10,875 bases of DNA from a virus, in UHGV virus genome UHGV-0301773, one strand, 5' to 3'. Both the position numbers and the translations under genes were made by a program. Under the pieces are notes generated by a model, which was given only the letters and a program-made list of their open reading frames with translations, did no database searches and had not been told where the DNA came from. This document shows positions 1,578-10,875 of the stretch, one piece after another (positions within the stretch are counted from its first letter, which is position 1; each line of letters starts with the position of its first letter).

Positions 1578-1605
1578 TTGACATCGCAACTTCTGCAGGT
1601 ATAAT
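1578..1605 (+). promoter_or_regulatory. Consensus sigma70 promoter (TTGACA-16 bp-TATAAT) for the plus-strand two-gene module
   Basis: TTGACA at 1578-1583 and TATAAT at 1600-1605, both perfect hexamers, 16-bp spacer; predicted start near 1612, about 150 nt upstream of the first gene. Confidence 0.6.
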
Positions 1606-2258: not shown

Positions 2259-2807
2259 ATGTCTCATAATTCAGATATCTATAAACTGATCGGAGCGGCC
2301 GCAGGTGTTGAAAATGGTCGCTCTGAAGCATCCTTAAACTCTACTGACAGTCAAGAGCAGGCTTTTGAATCCGCATTTGAGCCGTCTAATCATGAGCGCG
2401 ATGATGATTCTTCTTCAGAAAATAAGGCTATTCTGGAGGCAGAAGAGTTTGGTTCTAATACTGGTGCATTGCATGAGTTTATGCAGCAGAACAGAATGGA
2501 CAGTCTTCAAGCTCAGCTTGATATGCTCAAGTCACAAGTACGGGATAAGATAGCTGACGCAACTGGTAAAGAAATAGACAATGAGCTTCGGACAAAAATG
2601 GCCTCATTCACGGTTTGGTTTATGTCGTGTTGGTGCTTATTTGTAGCCGGAATGTTTGTATCATTTCTTATTGCTCATGAAGGAAAGCCGCCAGTTGAAG
2701 CAATCGTTGCATTACTGGGAACAAGTACAATTAGTATTGTTGGTTTGGTTGGCTTCGTTGTTAGTGGATTGTTCAAATCTAGAAAAGATGGCGATAAAGA
2801 AAAATAA
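2259..2807 (+). CDS. Two-TM membrane protein with acidic, coiled-coil-like N-terminal domain; candidate toxin/effector partner of the PanA-like protein
   Basis: 182-aa ORF starting 22 bp after the upstream stop, RBS AGGGA; acidic serine-rich N-terminus, helical central segment (LQAQLDMLKSQVRDKIAD), two hydrophobic helices near the C-terminus (FTVWFMSCWCLFVAGMFVSFLIA; AIVALLGTSTISIVGLVGFVVSGLF), basic tail. No family recognised. Confidence 0.7.
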   Translation: MSHNSDIYKLIGAAAGVENGRSEASLNSTDSQEQAFESAFEPSNHERDDDSSSENKAILEAEEFGSNTGALHEFMQQNRMDSLQAQLDMLKSQVRDKIADATGKEIDNELRTKMASFTVWFMSCWCLFVAGMFVSFLIAHEGKPPVEAIVALLGTSTISIVGLVGFVVSGLFKSRKDGDKEK

Positions 2808-2825
2808 CCCGTATATACACGGGTT
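2791..2825 (-). terminator. Rho-independent terminator between the convergent module and the leftward early operon
   Basis: Perfect 7-bp stem AACCCGT (2806-2812) / ACGGGTT (2819-2825) with 6-nt loop; on the minus-strand transcript the hairpin is followed by AUUUUUCUUU. Weaker U-tract in the plus direction. Confidence 0.6.
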
Positions 2826-2840
2826 ATTCATGGTCTTAGT

Positions 2841-6669: not shown

Positions 6670-7494
6670 TCAGGCGGTGAAAGTACCAATAAAGGTTTCT
6701 ACTTTGCTGTCTTTGAATTTCTCAACAAGCAGATCACGAAATTCGTTAGCCATTTCTTCCTGCATCGCTTCCAGCTGAATAATGCGCAGAACCAGTACAG
6801 GACGATCGCCAGTGATAATGCTGAGGCGTAATTTAAACGGACGTTCTTTCAGACCTTCAAACGGAACGCATTTAAATTCAAATGCCACTGGCATAATGTC
6901 TTTGGTCTTCGCTTCGACAGACTCCATCAGAGAGCGTTTGCCGCTGAAGTCATTGTCTTCAAAATCAGCGGTCTGGTTTGCTTCAATTGTGATTTTACGG
7001 ACTGCCGCAGCCGCTTTGGTTGCCTGAATGGTGTCACCATTAGCATCAAAGCCCACAAGGTAGTCGGCCCAGTCTTCAATCCATTCTGCCAGTGACTTCT
7101 GGGAGTTACGCTCGCCATTAACAGACAACAGAGCAGAAAACGGTGCTGTCTTTTTCAGTTTGAGGGTGGCGGTGTTATCTGCGTGACCTGGTTCATCAAT
7201 AGTACCCAGGTTAAGCACACTGACGGCTCGCATATTATCGGCATCGATAAAGCAGCGGGTGCCTTCATCTGCAAGATCTTTAGAATAACGGGTAAAGTCA
7301 TCGATGCTGACAGTGGAAAGCGCACCACGGAAACGGAAGCGATTTAAATTAAATTTTTCCAGATCATGAATGCGGAAATTCTCAGGCAATGCCACAGCAT
7401 CGGCACCAATCTTACTGATAATTTCATTAACACCCTGAGCAGAAATAAGGGCATGGATTTGATTAATTGCGGTTGCGTCTAAGTTCTGAGACAT
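6670..7494 (-). CDS. yfdQ: YfdQ-like (DUF2303 family) prophage protein
   Basis: 274-aa ORF, ATG at 7494 with RBS GAGGA 7 nt upstream; N-terminus [25 protein letters not shown] matches my recollection of CPS-53 YfdQ. Confidence 0.75.
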
Positions 7495-7559: not shown

Positions 7560-7922
7560 TTAATGACCTGCTGCGCGGAGTTTTCCGTCAGGTTCACCGG
7601 CAAGAGTCAGTAATTGTCCCTGGTCTTCCTGCAGAATAGTCAGGCGACCACCGCGATTGACATACATCGGCGTTTCGGTGGTGTCTTCTTCGGAAATTTT
7701 CCCGCGGTTAGTCGGGCGAACATATGAGAGTTTGTGTTTGATTTTCACACGGTTCTCATCAAACGGTTCGATTTCCAGGTTGAGCGAGACCTTACCTTTG
7801 GTTTTCGTGTTCATCACACCGGAAGCGACTTCACTGAGAACAGCGCCGATTTTGGTTTCAAATACGCCGCCGTCCAGCTCCCCGATAAATGCCTGCACAT
7901 CAGTACTGCGTTCGCTAGCCAT
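7560..7922 (-). CDS. Hypothetical protein (120 aa), first gene downstream of the PL-like promoter
   Basis: Internal ATG at 7922 preceded by RBS GAGGAG at 7-nt spacing; the longer track ORF (to 8108) has no RBS and poor composition. Acidic, no arginine-rich motif, so not N-like. Confidence 0.65.
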   Translation of the reverse strand: MASERSTDVQAFIGELDGGVFETKIGAVLSEVASGVMNTKTKGKVSLNLEIEPFDENRVKIKHKLSYVRPTNRGKISEEDTTETPMYVNRGGRLTILQEDQGQLLTLAGEPDGKLRAAGH

Positions 7923-7970
7923 TTTGCTGCTCCTCATCATATCGACCCTGCAAGGTCGGTTGGTTTCTCC

Positions 7971-8105
7971 ACAAAACAGAGAAGAACACCTGCGGTGGCA
8001 GCCGCCCGGATGGATTGGGTTATGAGCCCGTCGTCCGGCGATGCTCTTCTCTGTTTTGTAAAAAGAGCGGTACCAGCCGGAAGCAAGTGTACAAACTGGT
8101 ACCGC
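7971..8105 (-). ncRNA. Structured untranslated leader of the PL transcript: two adjacent stem-loops (candidate cis-acting antitermination or processing element)
   Basis: 15-bp perfect inverted repeat ACAAAACAGAGAAGA (7971-7985) / TCTTCTCTGTTTTGT (8045-8059) around a 59-nt GC-rich loop; 7 nt later a 10-bp perfect inverted repeat GCGGTACCAG (8067-8076) / CTGGTACCGC (8096-8105) with 19-nt loop. Confidence 0.35.
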
Positions 8106-8263
8106 CAAAGCAGTGGCTGTTGTGGTGACCGGTGCTGATCTCCGGCTTGCGGTTATTTCAGACTCTCACGGGCGTTTAATTGCCCCGCCGAACAGCTCTT
8201 TTCCGCAATAGCTGCAATGTCTTTCGCGCATCAGCCTGCGCATTCACCACAACTCTAAAAACA

Positions 8264-8317
8264 AATGTAGGATATCCAACATGTGAGTGTCAAGAGTTTG
8301 TGTTGGATATCCTACAT
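8264..8317 (-). promoter_or_regulatory. PL-like leftward promoter flanked by two operator sites
   Basis: Operator ATGTAGGATATCCAACAT at 8265-8282 and its reverse complement at 8300-8317 (palindromic GGATATCC core); minus-strand -35 TTGACA at 8293..8288, -10-like TACATT at 8269..8264 overlapping an operator. Confidence 0.55.
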
Positions 8318-8333
8318 AAAAAGATAGGCTCAT

Positions 8334-8360
8334 AAAAAAACCGGGGATACCCCGGTTTTG
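8334..8360 (-). terminator. Rho-independent terminator downstream of the repressor gene
   Basis: CCGGGG-ATA-CCCCGG hairpin (8341-8355) flanked by AAAAAAA (8334-8340) and TTTTG; on the minus strand the hairpin is followed by seven U, 20 bp after the cI-like stop. Confidence 0.7.
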
Positions 8361-8379
8361 CGATAGTGAGGAAGATGTG

Positions 8380-9033
8380 TCAAAAATCCATTATTACTTG
8401 TTTGACAAGACCAACTATTCTGCAGTTCTCACCGCATTCAATAGTTTTATAGTTAGGATTTAGTGGGACGAGATACCTGTTCGGCCAGTCCTCAACAAAT
8501 TTTTTGAGTGTCGCTTCTTGCCCACCATTGATATGGGCAACAACGATTTTTCCGTTAATACACTCTGTATCAATAATATCTGGCTCTACGATAACGATAG
8601 AACCTTCTGGTATCGATGGTGAGCCGAGGGGATTGGTCATTGAATCACCACGGACCCGTAGTGCAAATGCCATTTCTGATACAAGGGCGGTAGTATAAAC
8701 CCACTCTTCAGCATCTTCTTTCCTGACACCAGGCTCCGTCATTGTCCATGAACCCGCCTGAACCCACGAGATGAGGGGGACTTTTTTAACTGCGAATATT
8801 TCAGGTTTTAGATTTATCTTTGGTTCAGGCGAGCCTTTTCCGCTAACAAGCCACAGAGGATCGCATTTAAGTGCGTTGGCTAGGGCTTGAAGGTTGGCTC
8901 CATTTGGTTGGTAGTCGTCCTTTTCCCATCCAGTAACCGTGACACGGTTCACACCAGTCAAATCAGCCAGTGCTTGTTGTGTCAGGTTCAGTTCTTTTCG
9001 CCTTTGGCGAATACGATCACTCATGTTCATCAT
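8380..9033 (-). CDS. cI: cI-like prophage repressor: N-terminal XRE-type HTH plus C-terminal S24 (LexA-like) self-cleaving peptidase domain
   Basis: HTH region RIRQRRKELNLTQQALADLTGVNRVTVTGWEKD; C-terminal domain with RVRGDSM (Ser nucleophile) and EATLKKF (Lys general base); start at 9033 or 9024, overlapping an operator. Confidence 0.9.
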   Translation of the reverse strand: MMNMSDRIRQRRKELNLTQQALADLTGVNRVTVTGWEKDDYQPNGANLQALANALKCDPLWLVSGKGSPEPKINLKPEIFAVKKVPLISWVQAGSWTMTEPGVRKEDAEEWVYTTALVSEMAFALRVRGDSMTNPLGSPSIPEGSIVIVEPDIIDTECINGKIVVAHINGGQEATLKKFVEDWPNRYLVPLNPNYKTIECGENCRIVGLVKQVIMDF

Positions 9034-9097
9034 GTAGGCAATCCTACCACATGCCCATGTAGGATTCTTGACATTGGTATGTTGGATATCCTACATT
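9032..9097 (+). promoter_or_regulatory. PR/PRM-like divergent promoter region with three operator copies
   Basis: Sites ATGTAGGCAATCCTACCACAT (9032-9052), ATGTAGGATTCTTGACAT (9057-9074), ATGTTGGATATCCTACAT (9079-9096); plus-strand -35 TTGACA at 9068-9073 and -10-like TACATT at 9092-9097, about 30 nt upstream of cro-like ATG 9129. Confidence 0.6.
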
Positions 9098-9353: not shown

Positions 9354-9938
9354 GTGGGTAAAGAACCTGAATGGAAAGTTGATAAACAACCAGCATGGCT
9401 GGTGGCAGCAATACGAAGAACGATTGCTGATTTACCTCATGGCTATGAGGAAGCAGCAGAAATTCTTGGATTGTATAAATCTGATGATATCACCCCAGCA
9501 AAAGATCAATTGCATAACAGACTGCGTAGCGGTGGGGATCAAATTTTTCCACTTGAGTGGGTCATGGTTTTACAGGATGCCAGTGGTACCAGGCATGTAA
9601 CAGATGCAATAGCCCGTCGTAGTAATGGGGTGTTTGTGCCGCTGGTGGTCATTGATGACATTGACAATGGTGACATTAATCAGCGGCTGATGGAGTCAAT
9701 AGAATGGATTGGCAAGCATTCCCAGTACTTACGCAAGGCAACTGCTGATGGAGTTATTGACCAGGCTGAGCGTGAGCAAATCGAAGAGAACAGCTACCAG
9801 GTAATGGCGAAGTGGCAGGAGCATTTAACACTGTTATTTCGTGTTTTTTGTGCGCCGGAAAAGAGTAACGCCCGCGAGTGTGCAGCTCCGGGCGTCGTGG
9901 CGTCGATTGCTTCTGGTTGTGGAGAAACTAACGCATGA
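9354..9938 (+). CDS. cII-like lysogeny regulatory protein (CP76/YdaT-like family, tentative)
   Basis: GTG start at 9354 with RBS GAGGAA at 6-nt spacing; 194 aa; position right after cro; family assignment from memory and uncertain. Confidence 0.6.
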   Translation: MGKEPEWKVDKQPAWLVAAIRRTIADLPHGYEEAAEILGLYKSDDITPAKDQLHNRLRSGGDQIFPLEWVMVLQDASGTRHVTDAIARRSNGVFVPLVVIDDIDNGDINQRLMESIEWIGKHSQYLRKATADGVIDQAEREQIEENSYQVMAKWQEHLTLLFRVFCAPEKSNARECAAPGVVASIASGCGETNA

Positions 9939-10875
9939 ACAGTTTAACGGCAAATAACCGTTTGTCGCAACAGCTGGTGGTCAGCGTCGCTGAACACCTG
10001 TTGTTACGGCATGAATGCAGATTACCAAATCACCTGGCTGTAAGTAACCACAGAGAACTTTACCTGACTGTGGGGGGCGAGTTGTGCAGGAACTTAACCG
10101 CTGGTTTCGTGACGGAAGAGGACTTTATGTTCATGTTATTCGTTGGGAGCCAGAAACACAGCGCGTTATCTATCTTCGCAAAGACTACCCGCATGAGTGC
10201 TTTAGTCCTTTGTGGAAATTCAGGCGTGATTTTGTTGAGTGTGAAGGACCACCAGCACATTGATTCTGCCATTCCGGGACGTTACACTGTTCAGGCACCT
10301 TATAAAGCGGGTGCCGGGATTGGCGTCCTGAAATTGATTACTGAGCATAACCGCGCTCATGCGGTTTTTTCGTGTCATGAGCATTGCTACGCCCAAATTA
10401 TGGTGGGGCGTACAGGGCCGACTTCGGTCGGGCCGGGTTCGGTAGTCTCCGGTAACGCCAACCCTGTACGTCTCACCACCTCTGTGATTGGCGTCCCATG
10501 TGGTGAGTTTTCTAAAAAACTGACTACCGGGGCTGTCACCATGACTACTCTCCCAACCCTCTCTCAACCTGAAATTGCCATCGTTGATGGTCAGGCTGTT
10601 ACATCTTCTTTGGCTGTTGCTGACTTCTTCTCTAAACGTCATGACGATGTTCTGAAAAAGATCCGCATTTTGGATTGTTCTCCAGAGTTTTGTGCCCGCA
10701 ATTTTGCGGAGACATCAATTTTGGTACGCCAGCCCAACGGCGGTACTCGCAAACTTCCTTGCTATCAAATAACCCGCGACGGCTTTGCGTTTCTTGCTAT
10801 GGGTTTCACGGGTAAACGTGCTGCCCAGTTCAAAGAGGCATACATCAATGCCTTTAACCAGATGGAGAAACAGCT
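9935..10875 (+). CDS. Long open reading frame, 3' partial, carrying a Rha-family phage regulatory domain from about 10541; 5' boundary unresolved
   Basis: ATG at 9935 overlaps the upstream stop (ATGA); frame stays open to the window end (more than 310 codons). From ATG 10541 the translation MTTLPTLSQPEIAIVDGQAVTSSLAVADFFSKRHDDVLKKIRILDCSPEF...ITRDGFAFLAMGFTGKRAAQFKEAYINAFNQME matches the Rha signature as I recall it. Missing from the ORF track because it has no stop in the window. Confidence 0.5.
   Translation, partial: MNSLTANNRLSQQLVVSVAEHLLLRHECRLPNHLAVSNHRELYLTVGGELCRNLTAGFVTEEDFMFMLFVGSQKHSALSIFAKTTRMSALVLCGNSGVILLSVKDHQHIDSAIPGRYTVQAPYKAGAGIGVLKLITEHNRAHAVFSCHEHCYAQIMVGRTGPTSVGPGSVVSGNANPVRLTTSVIGVPCGEFSKKLTTGAVTMTTLPTLSQPEIAIVDGQAVTSSLAVADFFSKRHDDVLKKIRILDCSPEFCARNFAETSILVRQPNGGTRKLPCYQITRDGFAFLAMGFTGKRAAQFKEAYINAFNQMEKQ

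Follow-up and report, generated by a model that had tools for sequence, protein, structure and literature searches.

A conserved three-module RNA leader with an initiator-tRNA-like hairpin tip heads the early-left operon of N-less lambdoid prophages

The early-left (PL) operon of a group of lambdoid prophages that lack N is headed by a long transcribed 5' leader made of three conserved RNA modules. The leader was analysed in a viral genome of 10,875 nt (UHGV-0301773; this whole stretch is called the window), an N-less prophage of the SfV / ST64B / mEp460 / LLS type, where it occupies the minus strand from about 8256 to 7923. In the order of transcription, the modules are a cloverleaf-like domain (A), an intrinsic terminator (T) and a hairpin (H) that lies between T and the ribosome binding site of the first gene, yfdP (Table 1). 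The tip of H reproduces the anticodon stem-loop of initiator tRNA exactly, an unusual mimicry. The best explanation for this arrangement, in which confidence is about evenly balanced, is that T attenuates PL and a leader RNA of about 195 nt is released, while H serves as a post-transcriptional control or processing element on the read-through mRNA. The first-pass annotation of this DNA had described a long untranslated, cis-encoded structured leader heading the early-left operon of a lambdoid prophage without N, and this description is upheld; its fallback interpretation, "a processing site or a small RNA", is close to what the evidence favours.

N-less phages of this group are common, and include SfV, SfII, SfIV, ST64B, mEp460, cdtI, LLS and several Stx2 phages. 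On how they pass the early-left terminator, the literature offers only the guess "perhaps put-like" (PMC12315714). The hairpins that were flagged first are not a put element, and the antitermination question moves to the domain upstream of them. The leader consists here of a conserved terminator and, after it, a structured element of a new kind. This element, H, is a common undescribed RNA with no Rfam family, found in 2476 of 5426 complete E. coli genomes (46%) in up to five copies each. Even if H proves to be only a processing site, the three modules are separable in natural variants and make up a compact, testable system.

Table 1. Features of the PL leader and its surroundings in the window
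Feature	Position	Strand	Basis
Two perfect 17-bp operator half-palindromes bracketing PL	8265-8281 and 8301-8317		100% complementary (I2)
PL promoter: -35 TTGACA, 18-nt spacer, -10 TACATT	-35 at 8293-8288, -10 at 8269-8264	-	10/12 consensus matches
Inferred PL transcription start (±2 nt), also the mosaic boundary between immunity module and leader	8256	-	7-8 nt past the -10; homology edge
Domain A, 135-nt cloverleaf-like domain	8119-8253	-	long-range repeat I7; MFE; z = -1.98
25-codon ORF in domain A (MRRLMRER..., MRRLMRERHCSYCGKELFGGAIKRP), judged non-coding	8156-8233	-	ATG loss; no Pfam family
Unpaired linker or "seed" AGCCACUGCUUU joining domain A to T	8107-8118	-	fold prediction
T, intrinsic terminator: hairpin 8106-8066, tail UCUUUUU 8066-8060	8060-8106	-	-21.5 kcal/mol, z = -3.09 (10-bp hairpin with tail)
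H, 89-nt three-way-junction hairpin	7971-8059	-	-45.2 kcal/mol, z = -6.83 (hairpin alone); covariation; covariance model
P2 tip GGG-CUCAUAA-CCC, copy of the tRNAfMet anticodon stem-loop (positions 29-41)	8017-8029	-	13/13 identical
Conserved GGAG-containing motif GUGGAGAAACCAAC directly after H	7959-7972	-	two exact copies in the window
Small hairpin CGACCU-UGCA-GGGUCG, after H and ahead of the ribosome binding site	7943-7958	-	fold prediction
Shine-Dalgarno GAGGAG (7935-7930) and ATG (7922-7920) of yfdP, first gene of the PL operon	7922-7935	-	RefSeq: protein YfdP

A structured RNA begins at the PL start

The PL-like promoter that had been proposed at the head of the leader is confirmed, with TTGACA (8293) and TACATT (8264) separated by 18 nt and a 17-bp operator inverted repeat on its flanks. 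PR, on the plus strand (9068-9097), has identical hexamers and spacing, and the operator 16-mer occurs again there (9080-9095), along with a degenerate copy at 9033-9048. In mEp460 and in Stx2a phages, which carry other repressors, homology starts at query position 145, which is window position 8256. The PL transcript probably starts at about this nucleotide, exactly where homology to other immunity types begins.

Two adjacent perfect inverted repeats had been reported in the leader, and a repeat search recovers both at the same positions, 7 nt apart (8060-8066). The longer, I1, spans 25 nt (7971-7995 / 8035-8059) at 84% complementarity, with its outer 15 nt perfect; the shorter, I6, is 10 nt long and 100% complementary (8067-8076 / 8096-8105). 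RNA folding, which had been proposed as a check, finds the whole leader more stable than chance (z = -4.43, with 0 of 100 shuffles as good), as are the long hairpin alone and the 10-bp hairpin with its tail (Table 1). An Rfam scan of the window gives only noise over the leader, at gathering thresholds as well as over 7850-8400 with E raised to 10.

The leader can be aligned across the Enterobacterales, in Escherichia, Shigella, Salmonella, Klebsiella, Citrobacter, Enterobacter, Kosakonia, Phytobacter, Leclercia, Mangrovibacter and others. H is either unannotated or overlaid by a hypothetical protein in the RefSeq records sampled. When the available literature was searched by sequence string, the tip of H matched only papers on tRNAfMet, and T and the stems of H matched nothing. 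The Pas sRNAs of EPEC all lie elsewhere than in the PL leader, PasB in the midst of structural genes and PasA, PasC and PasD close to Q and the lysis genes (bioRxiv 10.64898/2026.05.13.724894).

Hairpin H and its initiator-tRNA-like tip

The 15-bp repeat had been read as enclosing a GC-rich loop of 59 nt. The repeat stands, but the open loop does not: the helix, P1, runs to 20 bp (8059-8040 / 7990-7971) with a three-way junction, a P2 arm (8038-8006) and a short P3 (8005-8002 / 7995-7992). Covariation bears this structure out, with 10-12 pairs of H changed on both sides. Between 94.5 and 96.9% of cells are paired, against 42-52% with slid partners, and none of 500 shuffles attains the observed score. 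A covariance model of H scores 110 bits on the sense strand versus 41 on the antisense, and places one copy in each phage (the window, ST64B and mEp460), between T and the yfdP ribosome binding site. The length of P1 is invariant at 20 bp, and Providencia relatives retain the long stem with a different apex. A second H-like match in one locus (L052) was discarded as a chance match with one mismatch, within a moron. In relatives, the 5' arm of H is CA-rich and looks like the GcvB target consensus; mimicry of GcvB targets in the manner of AgvB was considered and rejected, the arm being fully paired and covarying. The PR' moron site is where anti-sRNAs of the AgvB type lie (PMC4104026).

The most sequence-invariant part of H is its tip, GGGCUCAUAACCC, which carries the anticodon CAU at 8024-8022 and folds at minimum free energy into a 3-bp stem with a 7-nt loop. 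The match to tRNAfMet, complete over these 13 nt, extends to 16 of 17 over CG(A/U)CGGGCUCAUAACCC (z = 5.9); the tRNAfMet reference was checked and is present at 100% in all 5426 E. coli genomes. An apical stem-loop identical to that of the tRNA, anticodon included, is the mark of an anticodon-arm mimic, and GGGCUCAUAACCC is predicted to form such a stem-loop. Neither ARAGORN nor the Rfam tRNA model finds a tRNA gene in the window, and the anticodon stem-loop is the only part of tRNAfMet that is copied. CUCAU is invariant across genera, except at a divergent locus (L029) that has no CAU, and the stem never covaries. Loop positions 37-38 may be AA, UC or UA, and four loci have only two G-C pairs; this imperfect constraint of the loop weighs against the best explanation.

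The motif GUGGAGAAACCAAC is kept after H in all genera; its two exact copies in the window compare with 0.15 matches expected at a 2-mismatch threshold, and the second, on the plus strand (9919-9932), is followed after 3 nt by an ATG overlapping the stop codon of the CII-like gene. The small predicted hairpin downstream of the first has a counterpart at the same place in other genera with a different sequence, e.g. CGGCGGUGGCAGCCGCC. YfdP itself has no Pfam or NCBIfam family and no PDB relative, is listed as "unknown" in PHROGs, and yields a single-sequence AlphaFold model too poor to use (pLDDT 55.6).

A conserved terminator hairpin and the domain upstream of it

The 10-bp hairpin turns out to have a terminator tail, because the 7-nt spacer together with the last base of the stem reads UCUUUUU. 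Its stem comprises 13 pairs, with a perfect 10-bp core (8105-8096 / 8076-8067) and a 15-nt loop. In all 51 distinct variants (111 loci) the hairpin, at -13 to -36 kcal/mol, has 5-8 U behind it; the stem sequence has been replaced several times among them by unrelated stems, with the signature retained. On sequence grounds T is a terminator, a G+C-rich hairpin with an immediate U-tract that is conserved, and it is the sole terminator-like site on the minus strand from PL to xis. The loop of about 15 nt is large for an efficient terminator, which weighs against the best explanation. A pairing of 8202-8192 with 8071-8061 (I5) would use the 3' strand of T and was considered as an antiterminator; it is A/U-rich, has no comparative support and was treated as chance.

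Four different sequences occupy the linker slot across loci, all of them preceding one conserved terminator, a pattern known from sRNA families. In sister phages it is filled by AUUGCUGUGUGUAGUCUU, which matches the 3' part of the host sRNA RprA exactly, and in Eeyore and LLS the seed and the start of the terminator stem are identical to the RprA 3' end at 24 of 24 nt. The best relative scores 41 bits with the Rfam RprA model (RF00034; E = 0.07) against a threshold of 70, and the window, from which the RprA seed is absent, does not belong to the RprA family.

Domain A is closed by a helix of its own, in which GUUGUGGUGA (8253-8244) pairs with UCACCACAAC (8128-8119), a third perfect 10-bp repeat that was absent from the first-pass annotation. 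Within it are three arms: on the 5' side a hairpin (GCGCA-GGCUGA-UGCGC), in the middle a long arm, and on the 3' side a hairpin (CCGGA-loop-CCGG) lying directly against the closing helix. Seven distinct arm pairs of this helix, with G.U and compensatory changes, surround at least six different interiors, and in Phytobacter a complete tRNA-like gene sits in the same frame. The ST64B domain gives a sub-threshold match to Rfam STnc100 (35.1 bits versus a gathering score of 47), limited to the core, and the STnc100 model (RF02076) has no match in the window even at E up to 10. The weak fold score of the window's domain A, its lack of an Rfam family and the absence of an RprA-like seed from the window count against the best explanation. 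Several loci (L006, L007, L009, L025 and L027) carry T and H without any domain A, and no single upstream module always accompanies T.

A model for the leader

How might the modules work together? Transcription from about 8256 would immediately yield the 135-nt domain A, closed by its 10-bp helix, and next the 12-nt single-stranded linker and T. A large share of PL transcripts may end there, T acting as an attenuator or insulator ahead of yfdP-yfdQ-yfdR...xis. The product would be a stable leader RNA of about 195 nt with an STnc100-like layout of cloverleaf body, linker and terminator, and it might act in trans. Polymerases that pass T would transcribe H, with its rigid 20-bp helix, three-way junction and tRNAfMet-like tip, and after it the GGAG-containing motif, the small hairpin and the yfdP ribosome binding site. 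H would then act after transcription, on the read-through mRNA, as a processing and stability site for a double-strand-specific enzyme of the RNase III type, and would offer docking to a factor able to recognise the anticodon arm of initiator tRNA. Helices of at least 20 bp are of RNase III substrate size, and the 20-bp P1 has the roughly two turns or more of uninterrupted double-stranded RNA that this entails; helix geometry and analogy with the lambda N leader suggest that H may be cleaved in this way. If T is efficient, the operon needs a way past it.

Alternative explanations

Could the leader itself supply that way? The first-pass annotation had likened its two tandem stem-loops to an antiterminator of the HK022 put type. 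The comparison is not supported, the first stem-loop being a conserved intrinsic terminator and the second, H, being unable to carry RNA polymerase through T because it lies downstream of it. Any cis-acting antiterminator in the leader would have to be the upstream 135-nt domain A, which had not been described. That domain A, in place of the flagged hairpins, is a processive put-like RNA that binds its own RNA polymerase is unlikely, despite several points in its favour. No N-like gene is present, as had been noted: with Pfam and PHROGs, no antiterminator was found among the scanned PL-operon ORFs to xis or in the CII-like gene of the PR operon, and in the RefSeq annotation of a 99.4%-identical prophage the sole antiterminator is of the Q family, far to the right; yet a conserved terminator precedes the first gene. 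ST64B-type leaders hold two terminator-like hairpins, an argument that the group has some mechanism of antitermination. Domain A begins no more than 3 nt from the inferred start, as HK022 putL does (PMC9378689), and the authors of phage LLS, whose leader is of the same type, propose a put-like mechanism because N is absent (PMC12315714). However, putL is not similar to the leader (Smith-Waterman z = -0.78) or to the promoter-proximal module of relatives (z ~0), and putR does not resemble the leader either, whereas putL and putR do align together. Domain A has 135 nt and three arms, against about 70 nt and two stems in put, and it is missing from the five loci that keep T and H. In the PR operon, where a put system has its related second copy, neither a copy of H (by the covariance model) nor a frame like the closing helix of domain A was found. 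Cloverleaves of the STnc100 type are also present in late operons, in which antitermination is already provided by Q. Very unlikely is a nut-like site at which a protein antiterminator encoded elsewhere in the phage, or a host Nus-factor complex, would load; a nut-like site had also been suggested. The boxA consensus is CGCUCUUUAACAA, and a boxA-like string, CGCUCUUUUUACAA, can be found at 8068-8055; relatives have GUGCUCUUUCC or UGCUCUUUAAAAAU ahead of domain A and a GU-rich, boxC-like string ahead of T. However, the boxA-like string of the window is simply the 3' strand of T with its U-tail, other genera differ there (CGCCCUUUUUACA, GCAAUUUUUUACA), and the GU-rich string is the RprA seed that the window lacks. 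No 15-nt hairpin of the boxB type was seen on reading the leader by eye, and no arginine-rich N-like protein is encoded, the first PL gene being yfdP.

Two further alternatives concern the nature of the element and its target. That the leader encodes a missed small protein, or that its repeats act as DNA, for example as a protein-binding palindrome, is highly improbable. The 25-codon ORF in domain A does have an arginine-rich N terminus (MRRLMRER), and hypothetical ORFs are annotated across the mEp460 and Eeyore leaders in GenBank. However, these annotated ORFs vary between records, and no ORF overlapping the leader on either strand belongs to an NCBIfam family. The 25-codon ORF has no family, its only Shine-Dalgarno-like sequence (GGTGA) directly abuts the ATG, and that ATG is lost in two natural variants (ATA in L037, AGG in L060), in keeping with the earlier statement that the leader has no convincing ORF; attenuation through a leader peptide was rejected on the same loss. 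The helices are upheld by G.U pairs and compensatory changes, and with the covariance model the transcribed strand outscores the other by 70 bits, a strand specificity which argues that the element acts as RNA, not as DNA or protein. The other alternative takes the tip of H at face value: H would be a decoy, sensor or operator that works by initiator-tRNA mimicry, its tip bound or cut by a factor that recognises the tRNAfMet anticodon arm, such as a VapC-type anticodon nuclease, MetRS or the 30S P site with IF3, and it would set early-left gene expression or shield the host initiator tRNA in lytic growth. This is doubtful, though much about the tip fits it. The 13 nt include the G-C pairs that mark initiator tRNA, they are displayed on a rigid arm of conserved length, and their invariance without covariation suggests sequence-specific recognition over mere pairing; the thrS operator provides a precedent. 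Enteric VapC toxins, as Winther and Gerdes are said to have found in 2011, cut tRNAfMet between A38 and C39, and the sole variable loop positions, 37 and 38, adjoin that bond. On the other hand, a decoy would be kept scarce by the terminator just ahead of it, position 37 may be U, which is found in no tRNA, some loci have only two G-C pairs or no CAU, and the gene downstream is apparently not a tRNA-related enzyme, YfdP and YfdQ having no assigned function. Such mimicry is compatible with attenuation at T and post-transcriptional action of H, and does not exclude them. We tentatively entertain, while thinking it improbable, that H represents a phage leader element of a new class, through which a factor recognising tRNAfMet (a VapC-type nuclease, the 30S P site/IF3 or MetRS) is sensed, titrated or deflected. 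If this were true, early-left expression, or the survival of initiation in lytic growth, would be coupled to the state of the host initiator tRNA, and the PL leader of N-less phages would be a battery of tRNA mimics. Such a battery would also take in the domain A cloverleaf, the Phytobacter tRNA at the same site and the T-arm-like hairpins of ST64B-type leaders.

Comparison with known systems

Domain A, linker and T together have the same three-part layout as STnc100 (RF02076), a prophage-borne sRNA related to PasD, in which a cloverleaf core is likewise followed by a linker and then an intrinsic terminator. The two share a (U)GGUG/CACCA closing helix, a 5' hairpin right after GGUGAAU and a 3' hairpin, CCGGGAGGCACCCGG, abutting the closing helix, and ST64B-type domain A aligns to model positions 31-147. 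STnc100 is also present in the same lambdoid phages as the leader: a bona fide copy (153.8 bits), with cloverleaf core, linker and intrinsic terminator, occurs in an Stx2a phage that carries the leader too. However, it sits in the late operon, 75 nt after stx2B (PMC12370729), whereas the leader opens the PL transcript. The terminator and linker of STnc100 bear no relation to T, and its model does not detect the window's domain A. The likeness is one of shape, not of mechanism.

A single-stranded seed directly before a Rho-independent terminator with a U-tail is the classic Hfq-binding 3' module, as at the 3' end of RprA; the window has this arrangement with another seed (AGCCACUGCUUU) and another stem. 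In 3'ETS-leuZ a tRNA-like body is followed by a trailer that ends in a terminator, and the leader is arranged like tRNA 3'-trailer sRNAs of this type. With putL and putR of HK022 it shares a promoter-proximal structured RNA in an early operon of a lambdoid phage without N, and a terminator before the early genes. The put elements are about 70 nt long, with two stem-loops and related copies in both early operons, and the leader differs from them in size and fold. They are located upstream of the terminators that they suppress, a position which domain A has and H does not, and they act on RNA polymerase by way of the beta' zinc-binding domain.

For H, the closest parallels are found in other leader hairpins. 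The thrS operator mimics the anticodon arm of tRNAThr, and H resembles it as a leader hairpin whose apical stem-loop is the anticodon arm of a specific tRNA, anticodon included. The tRNA copied in H is the initiator, though, and the gene downstream is apparently not the cognate synthetase; the tip of H lies about 90 nt from the start codon on a long arm, while the thrS mimic adjoins the Shine-Dalgarno sequence. To our knowledge, no bacterial or phage mRNA leader is known to mimic initiator tRNA. In the lambda N leader, nutL is followed by a large RNase III-sensitive hairpin ahead of the N ribosome binding site, and H is likewise a long hairpin between a promoter-proximal control element and the ribosome binding site of the first PL gene. 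The window has neither nutL nor N, and the lambda hairpin lacks the conserved three-way junction and the tRNA-like tip, both of which H has.

Structure of the leader and the comparative set

The PL leader runs on the minus strand from about 8256 to 7923 and comprises a 5' domain (domain A), a short hairpin (T) and a long hairpin (H). Two perfect inverted repeats had been reported in the first-pass annotation, and both are confirmed: the 15-bp repeat (7971-7985/8045-8059) is the base of H and the 10-bp repeat (8067-8076/8096-8105) is T. The 59 nt inside the former, described as a loop, prove to be internally structured. Against shuffled sequence, the fold gives z = -4.43 for the whole leader, -6.83 for the long hairpin and -3.09 for the short one. 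Three further features had likewise been overlooked: a U-rich tail at the 3' side of the short hairpin, a third 10-bp long-range repeat (8253-8244/8128-8119) that closes the 135-nt 5' domain, and a mosaic boundary at 8256, the expected transcription start. The leader indeed lacks a convincing ORF, a 25-codon ORF in domain A not being conserved as coding.

The comparative set consists of 31 loci from YfdP homologues, at one genome per species, 80 further loci from IMG/VR, and the annotated phages ST64B, Kp4866-6, phiNP, Eeyore, LLS, mEp460 and Stx2a_1447. The leader is alignable across many Enterobacterales genera at 70-87% identity.

Features of the leader and its surroundings (window positions unless a comparative locus, L, is named)
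Feature	Position	Strand	Remarks
S24/HTH repressor gene	9033-8380	-	
Repressor terminator	8359-8337	-	
PL-type promoter	TTGACA 8293, TACATT 8264	-	18-nt spacing; between two 17-bp operator palindromes
Domain A	8253-8119	-	
T	8106-8060	-	including tail
H	8059-7971	-	
GUGGAGAAACYAAC, copy 1	7959-7972	-	directly after H
yfdP	7922-7560	-	first PL gene
yfdQ	6670-7494	-	second PL gene, DUF2303
P22-Cro-like gene, CII-like gene, isrK and C4 RNAs		+	the two RNAs ahead of Rha-type antirepressor gene
GUGGAGAAACYAAC, copy 2	9919-9932	+	3' end of CII-like gene, 3 nt before the ATG overlapping its stop (ATGA)
isrK	10295-10371	+	Rfam, 59 bits
C4 antisense RNA	10396-10483	+	Rfam, 82 bits
RprA-like segment	L118 1455-1506 and L119		phages Eeyore and LLS; also noted (seed) for L003, L117 and others

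The long hairpin carries a copy of the initiator anticodon arm

The alignment of 29 distinct H sequences supports four helices: a 20-bp P1 of constant length, an arm P2 tipped by a 7-nt loop on a 3-bp stem, and P3, a short hairpin. Between 94.5 and 96.9% of cells are paired, versus 42-52% with the partners slid; 10-12 pairs show changes on both sides, and the observed covariation score was reached by 0/500 shuffles. A covariance model built from this alignment scores the transcribed strand at 110 bits versus 41 for the opposite strand. Its hits in the window, ST64B and mEp460 number exactly one apiece, and every one lies after T and ahead of the yfdP ribosome-binding site. H alone occurs in 2476 of 5426 complete E. 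coli genomes, in up to five copies, and also on 38 plasmid or phage-plasmid records. Five sampled records mostly leave it unannotated, one placing a hypothetical protein over it.

The tip of H (8029-8017), GGGCUCAUAACCC, equals positions 29-41 of E. coli tRNAfMet, and the identity extends to 16 of 17 nt (CG[A/U]CGGGCUCAUAACCC; z = 5.9 versus shuffles); the tRNAfMet sequence was verified at 100% in all 5426 E. coli genomes. In the predicted fold the tip has CUCAUAA as its 7-nt loop, on a stem of three G-C pairs. Its stem never covaries, unlike the other helices of H, and CUCAU is invariant in the loop except at one divergent locus without CAU; positions 37-38 read AA, UC or UA. Four loci are one G short; relatives in Providencia retain the long stem but end it in a different apex. 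Our conclusion is that the initiator anticodon stem-loop has a conserved copy in this tip, and that selection on the tip in Enterobacteriaceae is sequence-specific. H has no Rfam family and no sequence match in the literature searched, a text search with the invariant tip returning only papers on initiator tRNA, and it appears to be undescribed so far. It is both very prevalent and an exact mimic of the initiator-tRNA anticodon arm; T, and a structured leader as a general idea, are ordinary.

On its 3' side H is followed by the conserved motif GUGGAGAAACYAAC, then by a small hairpin whose sequence varies, then by a Shine-Dalgarno sequence. The motif has two copies in the window, where 0.15 matches are expected at the 2-mismatch search threshold. 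It includes a GGA, 37 nt from that of the yfdP Shine-Dalgarno sequence, and the two could form a candidate CsrA-type double site. As a separate observation, Providencia has a GUGGAGUAAU version of the motif ahead of a csrA-like ORF; the PL leader of Providencia prophages (L028 2621-2806, L030 2645-2830) encodes, directly 5' of T, a CsrA homologue of 61 aa (Pfam CsrA, E = 1e-25).

The short hairpin and its seed

All 51 distinct versions of T in 111 loci are hairpins of -13 to -36 kcal/mol followed directly by 5-8 U. The stem sequence has been swapped several times (GGCGGUACCAG, GCGGCGUC, GCGGCACC, GUCGGCGUC, UGCCCAUC and others), and loop sizes run from 3 nt up to more than 40 nt. T is a predicted intrinsic terminator, the sole terminator-like site on the minus strand from PL to xis. 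In many relatives the T loop is expanded, with an apical hairpin that shows AGGAGGA or GAGGA and with a conserved GAUAAUGUUCUG bulge. The boxA consensus is CGCUCUUUAACAA; the string CGCUCUUUUUACAA (8055-8068, minus strand) resembles it but consists of the T 3' strand plus tail, and other genera do not conserve it. One E. coli leader type has UGCUCUUUAAAAAUCA after a hairpin (L052 ~1275-1292).

Hfq-type sRNA 3' modules are marked by a variable single-stranded seed followed by a conserved terminator with a U-tail. Eeyore and LLS share 24/24 nt with the 3' part of the host sRNA RprA (AUUGCUGUGUGUAGUCUUUGCCCA), from 18 nt 5' of the T stem into the stem, and the Rfam RprA model aligns there (E = 0.07). 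Most other relatives keep the RprA-type seed UUGCUGUGUGUAGUCUU ahead of unrelated T stems; AGCCACUGCUUU takes its place in the window and in two further E. coli leader types. Early in lytic growth, phages with the RprA-type seed may produce a mimic of RprA.

Domain A and the modularity of the leader

At least six unrelated interiors share the closing helix of domain A (GUUGUGGUGA/UCACCACAAC), which shows G.U and compensatory variants. In Phytobacter ursingii (L018 2722-2800, L023 1186-1264) a complete tRNA-like gene (ARAGORN, tRNA-Ile(AAT); Rfam tRNA, 52.8 bits) sits exactly in this frame, with the same GUUGUGG/CCGCAAC closing helix. An interior of the ST64B type reaches 35 bits on the Rfam STnc100 core, under the gathering score, and a genuine STnc100 (153.8 bits) was found in an Stx2a phage that also carries the PL leader. 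In this STnc100 a 7-bp helix closes the cloverleaf core, and a linker and an intrinsic terminator follow, which is also the layout of domain A, linker and T. Rfam does not recognise the window's own domain A, which we regard as a distant, hitherto unrecognised relative of an sRNA family that is known without being characterised. No function is known for STnc100 or its relative PasD, both of them prophage sRNAs (bioRxiv 10.64898/2026.05.13.724894; PMC12370729). One Superficieibacter leader holds two different domain A-type cloverleaves in tandem (L015, 2290-2423 and 2634-2763).

Each module is present or absent independently of the others: Buttiauxella has domain A without T and H, a 'Martelella' assembly lacks just H, and Mangrovibacter, Enterobacter and Kosakonia have T and H without domain A. 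The leaders of ST64B and phiNP measure 0.7-1 kb and include several extra modules. Among PL leaders of 0.6-1 kb with more conserved modules (L115 2520-3000, ST64B; L117 800-1450, phiNP; L116, L118, L119) are seen a promoter-proximal element CAGCGAACAGGCAGGACGCC...GGAUGAUUCGCUG, a pseudoknot-like element CCACCUCGCCUGAUGUGGCUAAAAGCAGGCAC, a second terminator-like hairpin with 3' end CCAGCUUUUUCAGGGCACAAC, a module with two T-arm-like hairpins (GGUUCGAUUCC), and a long hairpin CACAACAUGAAAGCGCACUCC...GGAGUGCGCUUUCAGUUGUG. The 3' arm of this last hairpin overlaps the 5' strand of the domain A closing helix, so it could be a switch. GCAC(A/C)CAAC tends to stand at module ends.

Gene neighbourhood

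The window covers the immunity and early-left region of an E. coli lambdoid prophage, carried at 99.4% identity by many STEC and ETEC chromosomes and Stx2c phages. The yfdQ product matches PDB 9o7m, 'YfdQ Protein' (E = 4e-44), whose 36 chains indicate that YfdQ forms, or was solved as, a large assembly; the literature searched gives it no function. Downstream of yfdQ come a gene for an HD-domain 5'-nucleotidase and small unknown genes, then one Ead/Ea22-like and one DUF551 gene, an exonuclease gene, xis and int. Directly after xis and before int, a strong terminator-like hairpin (2802-2829, minus strand; GAATAACCCGTGTATATACGGGTTATTT then TTCTTT) recalls by position the lambda tI/sib region. 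A sigma-70 promoter with 12/12 consensus (1578-1605, plus strand; TTGACA, 16 nt, TATAAT) reads into plus-strand ORFs 1748-2236 and 2259-2807, between int and xis, probably a moron with its own promoter. In the PR operon, isrK and C4 stand in tandem just 5' of the Rha-type antirepressor ORF (start ~10542), as a pair also present in ST64B, mEp460 and Stx2a_1447; similar RNA control of an antirepressor is known from P1 immI, here inside a lambdoid early-right operon.

Transcription of the leader and comparison with known systems

How might polymerase pass T? The first-pass annotation likened the two flagged hairpins to antitermination RNAs of the HK022 put type, with a nut-like site, a processing site or a small RNA as alternatives; the put reading fails for these hairpins on geometry, similarity and copy number. 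Its observation that no N-like gene is present holds (family searches of the scanned PL-operon ORFs and the CII-like gene; annotation of a near-identical prophage), and no boxB-type hairpin was seen on reading the leader; a nut/N system appears to be absent. An action of upstream leader modules in cis-antitermination stays alive as a rival because ST64B-type leaders hold two terminator-like hairpins; the LLS authors raised this guess without evidence (PMC12315714).

The best-supported picture is one in which PL transcripts would open on a cloverleaf-like body and for the most part stop at T, yielding an STnc100-like leader RNA of ~195 nt and keeping the early-left operon attenuated. Transcripts reading through T, by leakiness, domain A or a factor as candidate ways, would carry H. 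By position and geometry H is likened to the RNase III-sensitive hairpin of the lambda N leader, which lacks its added junction and initiator-tRNA-like tip; these two additions would imply a specific ligand.
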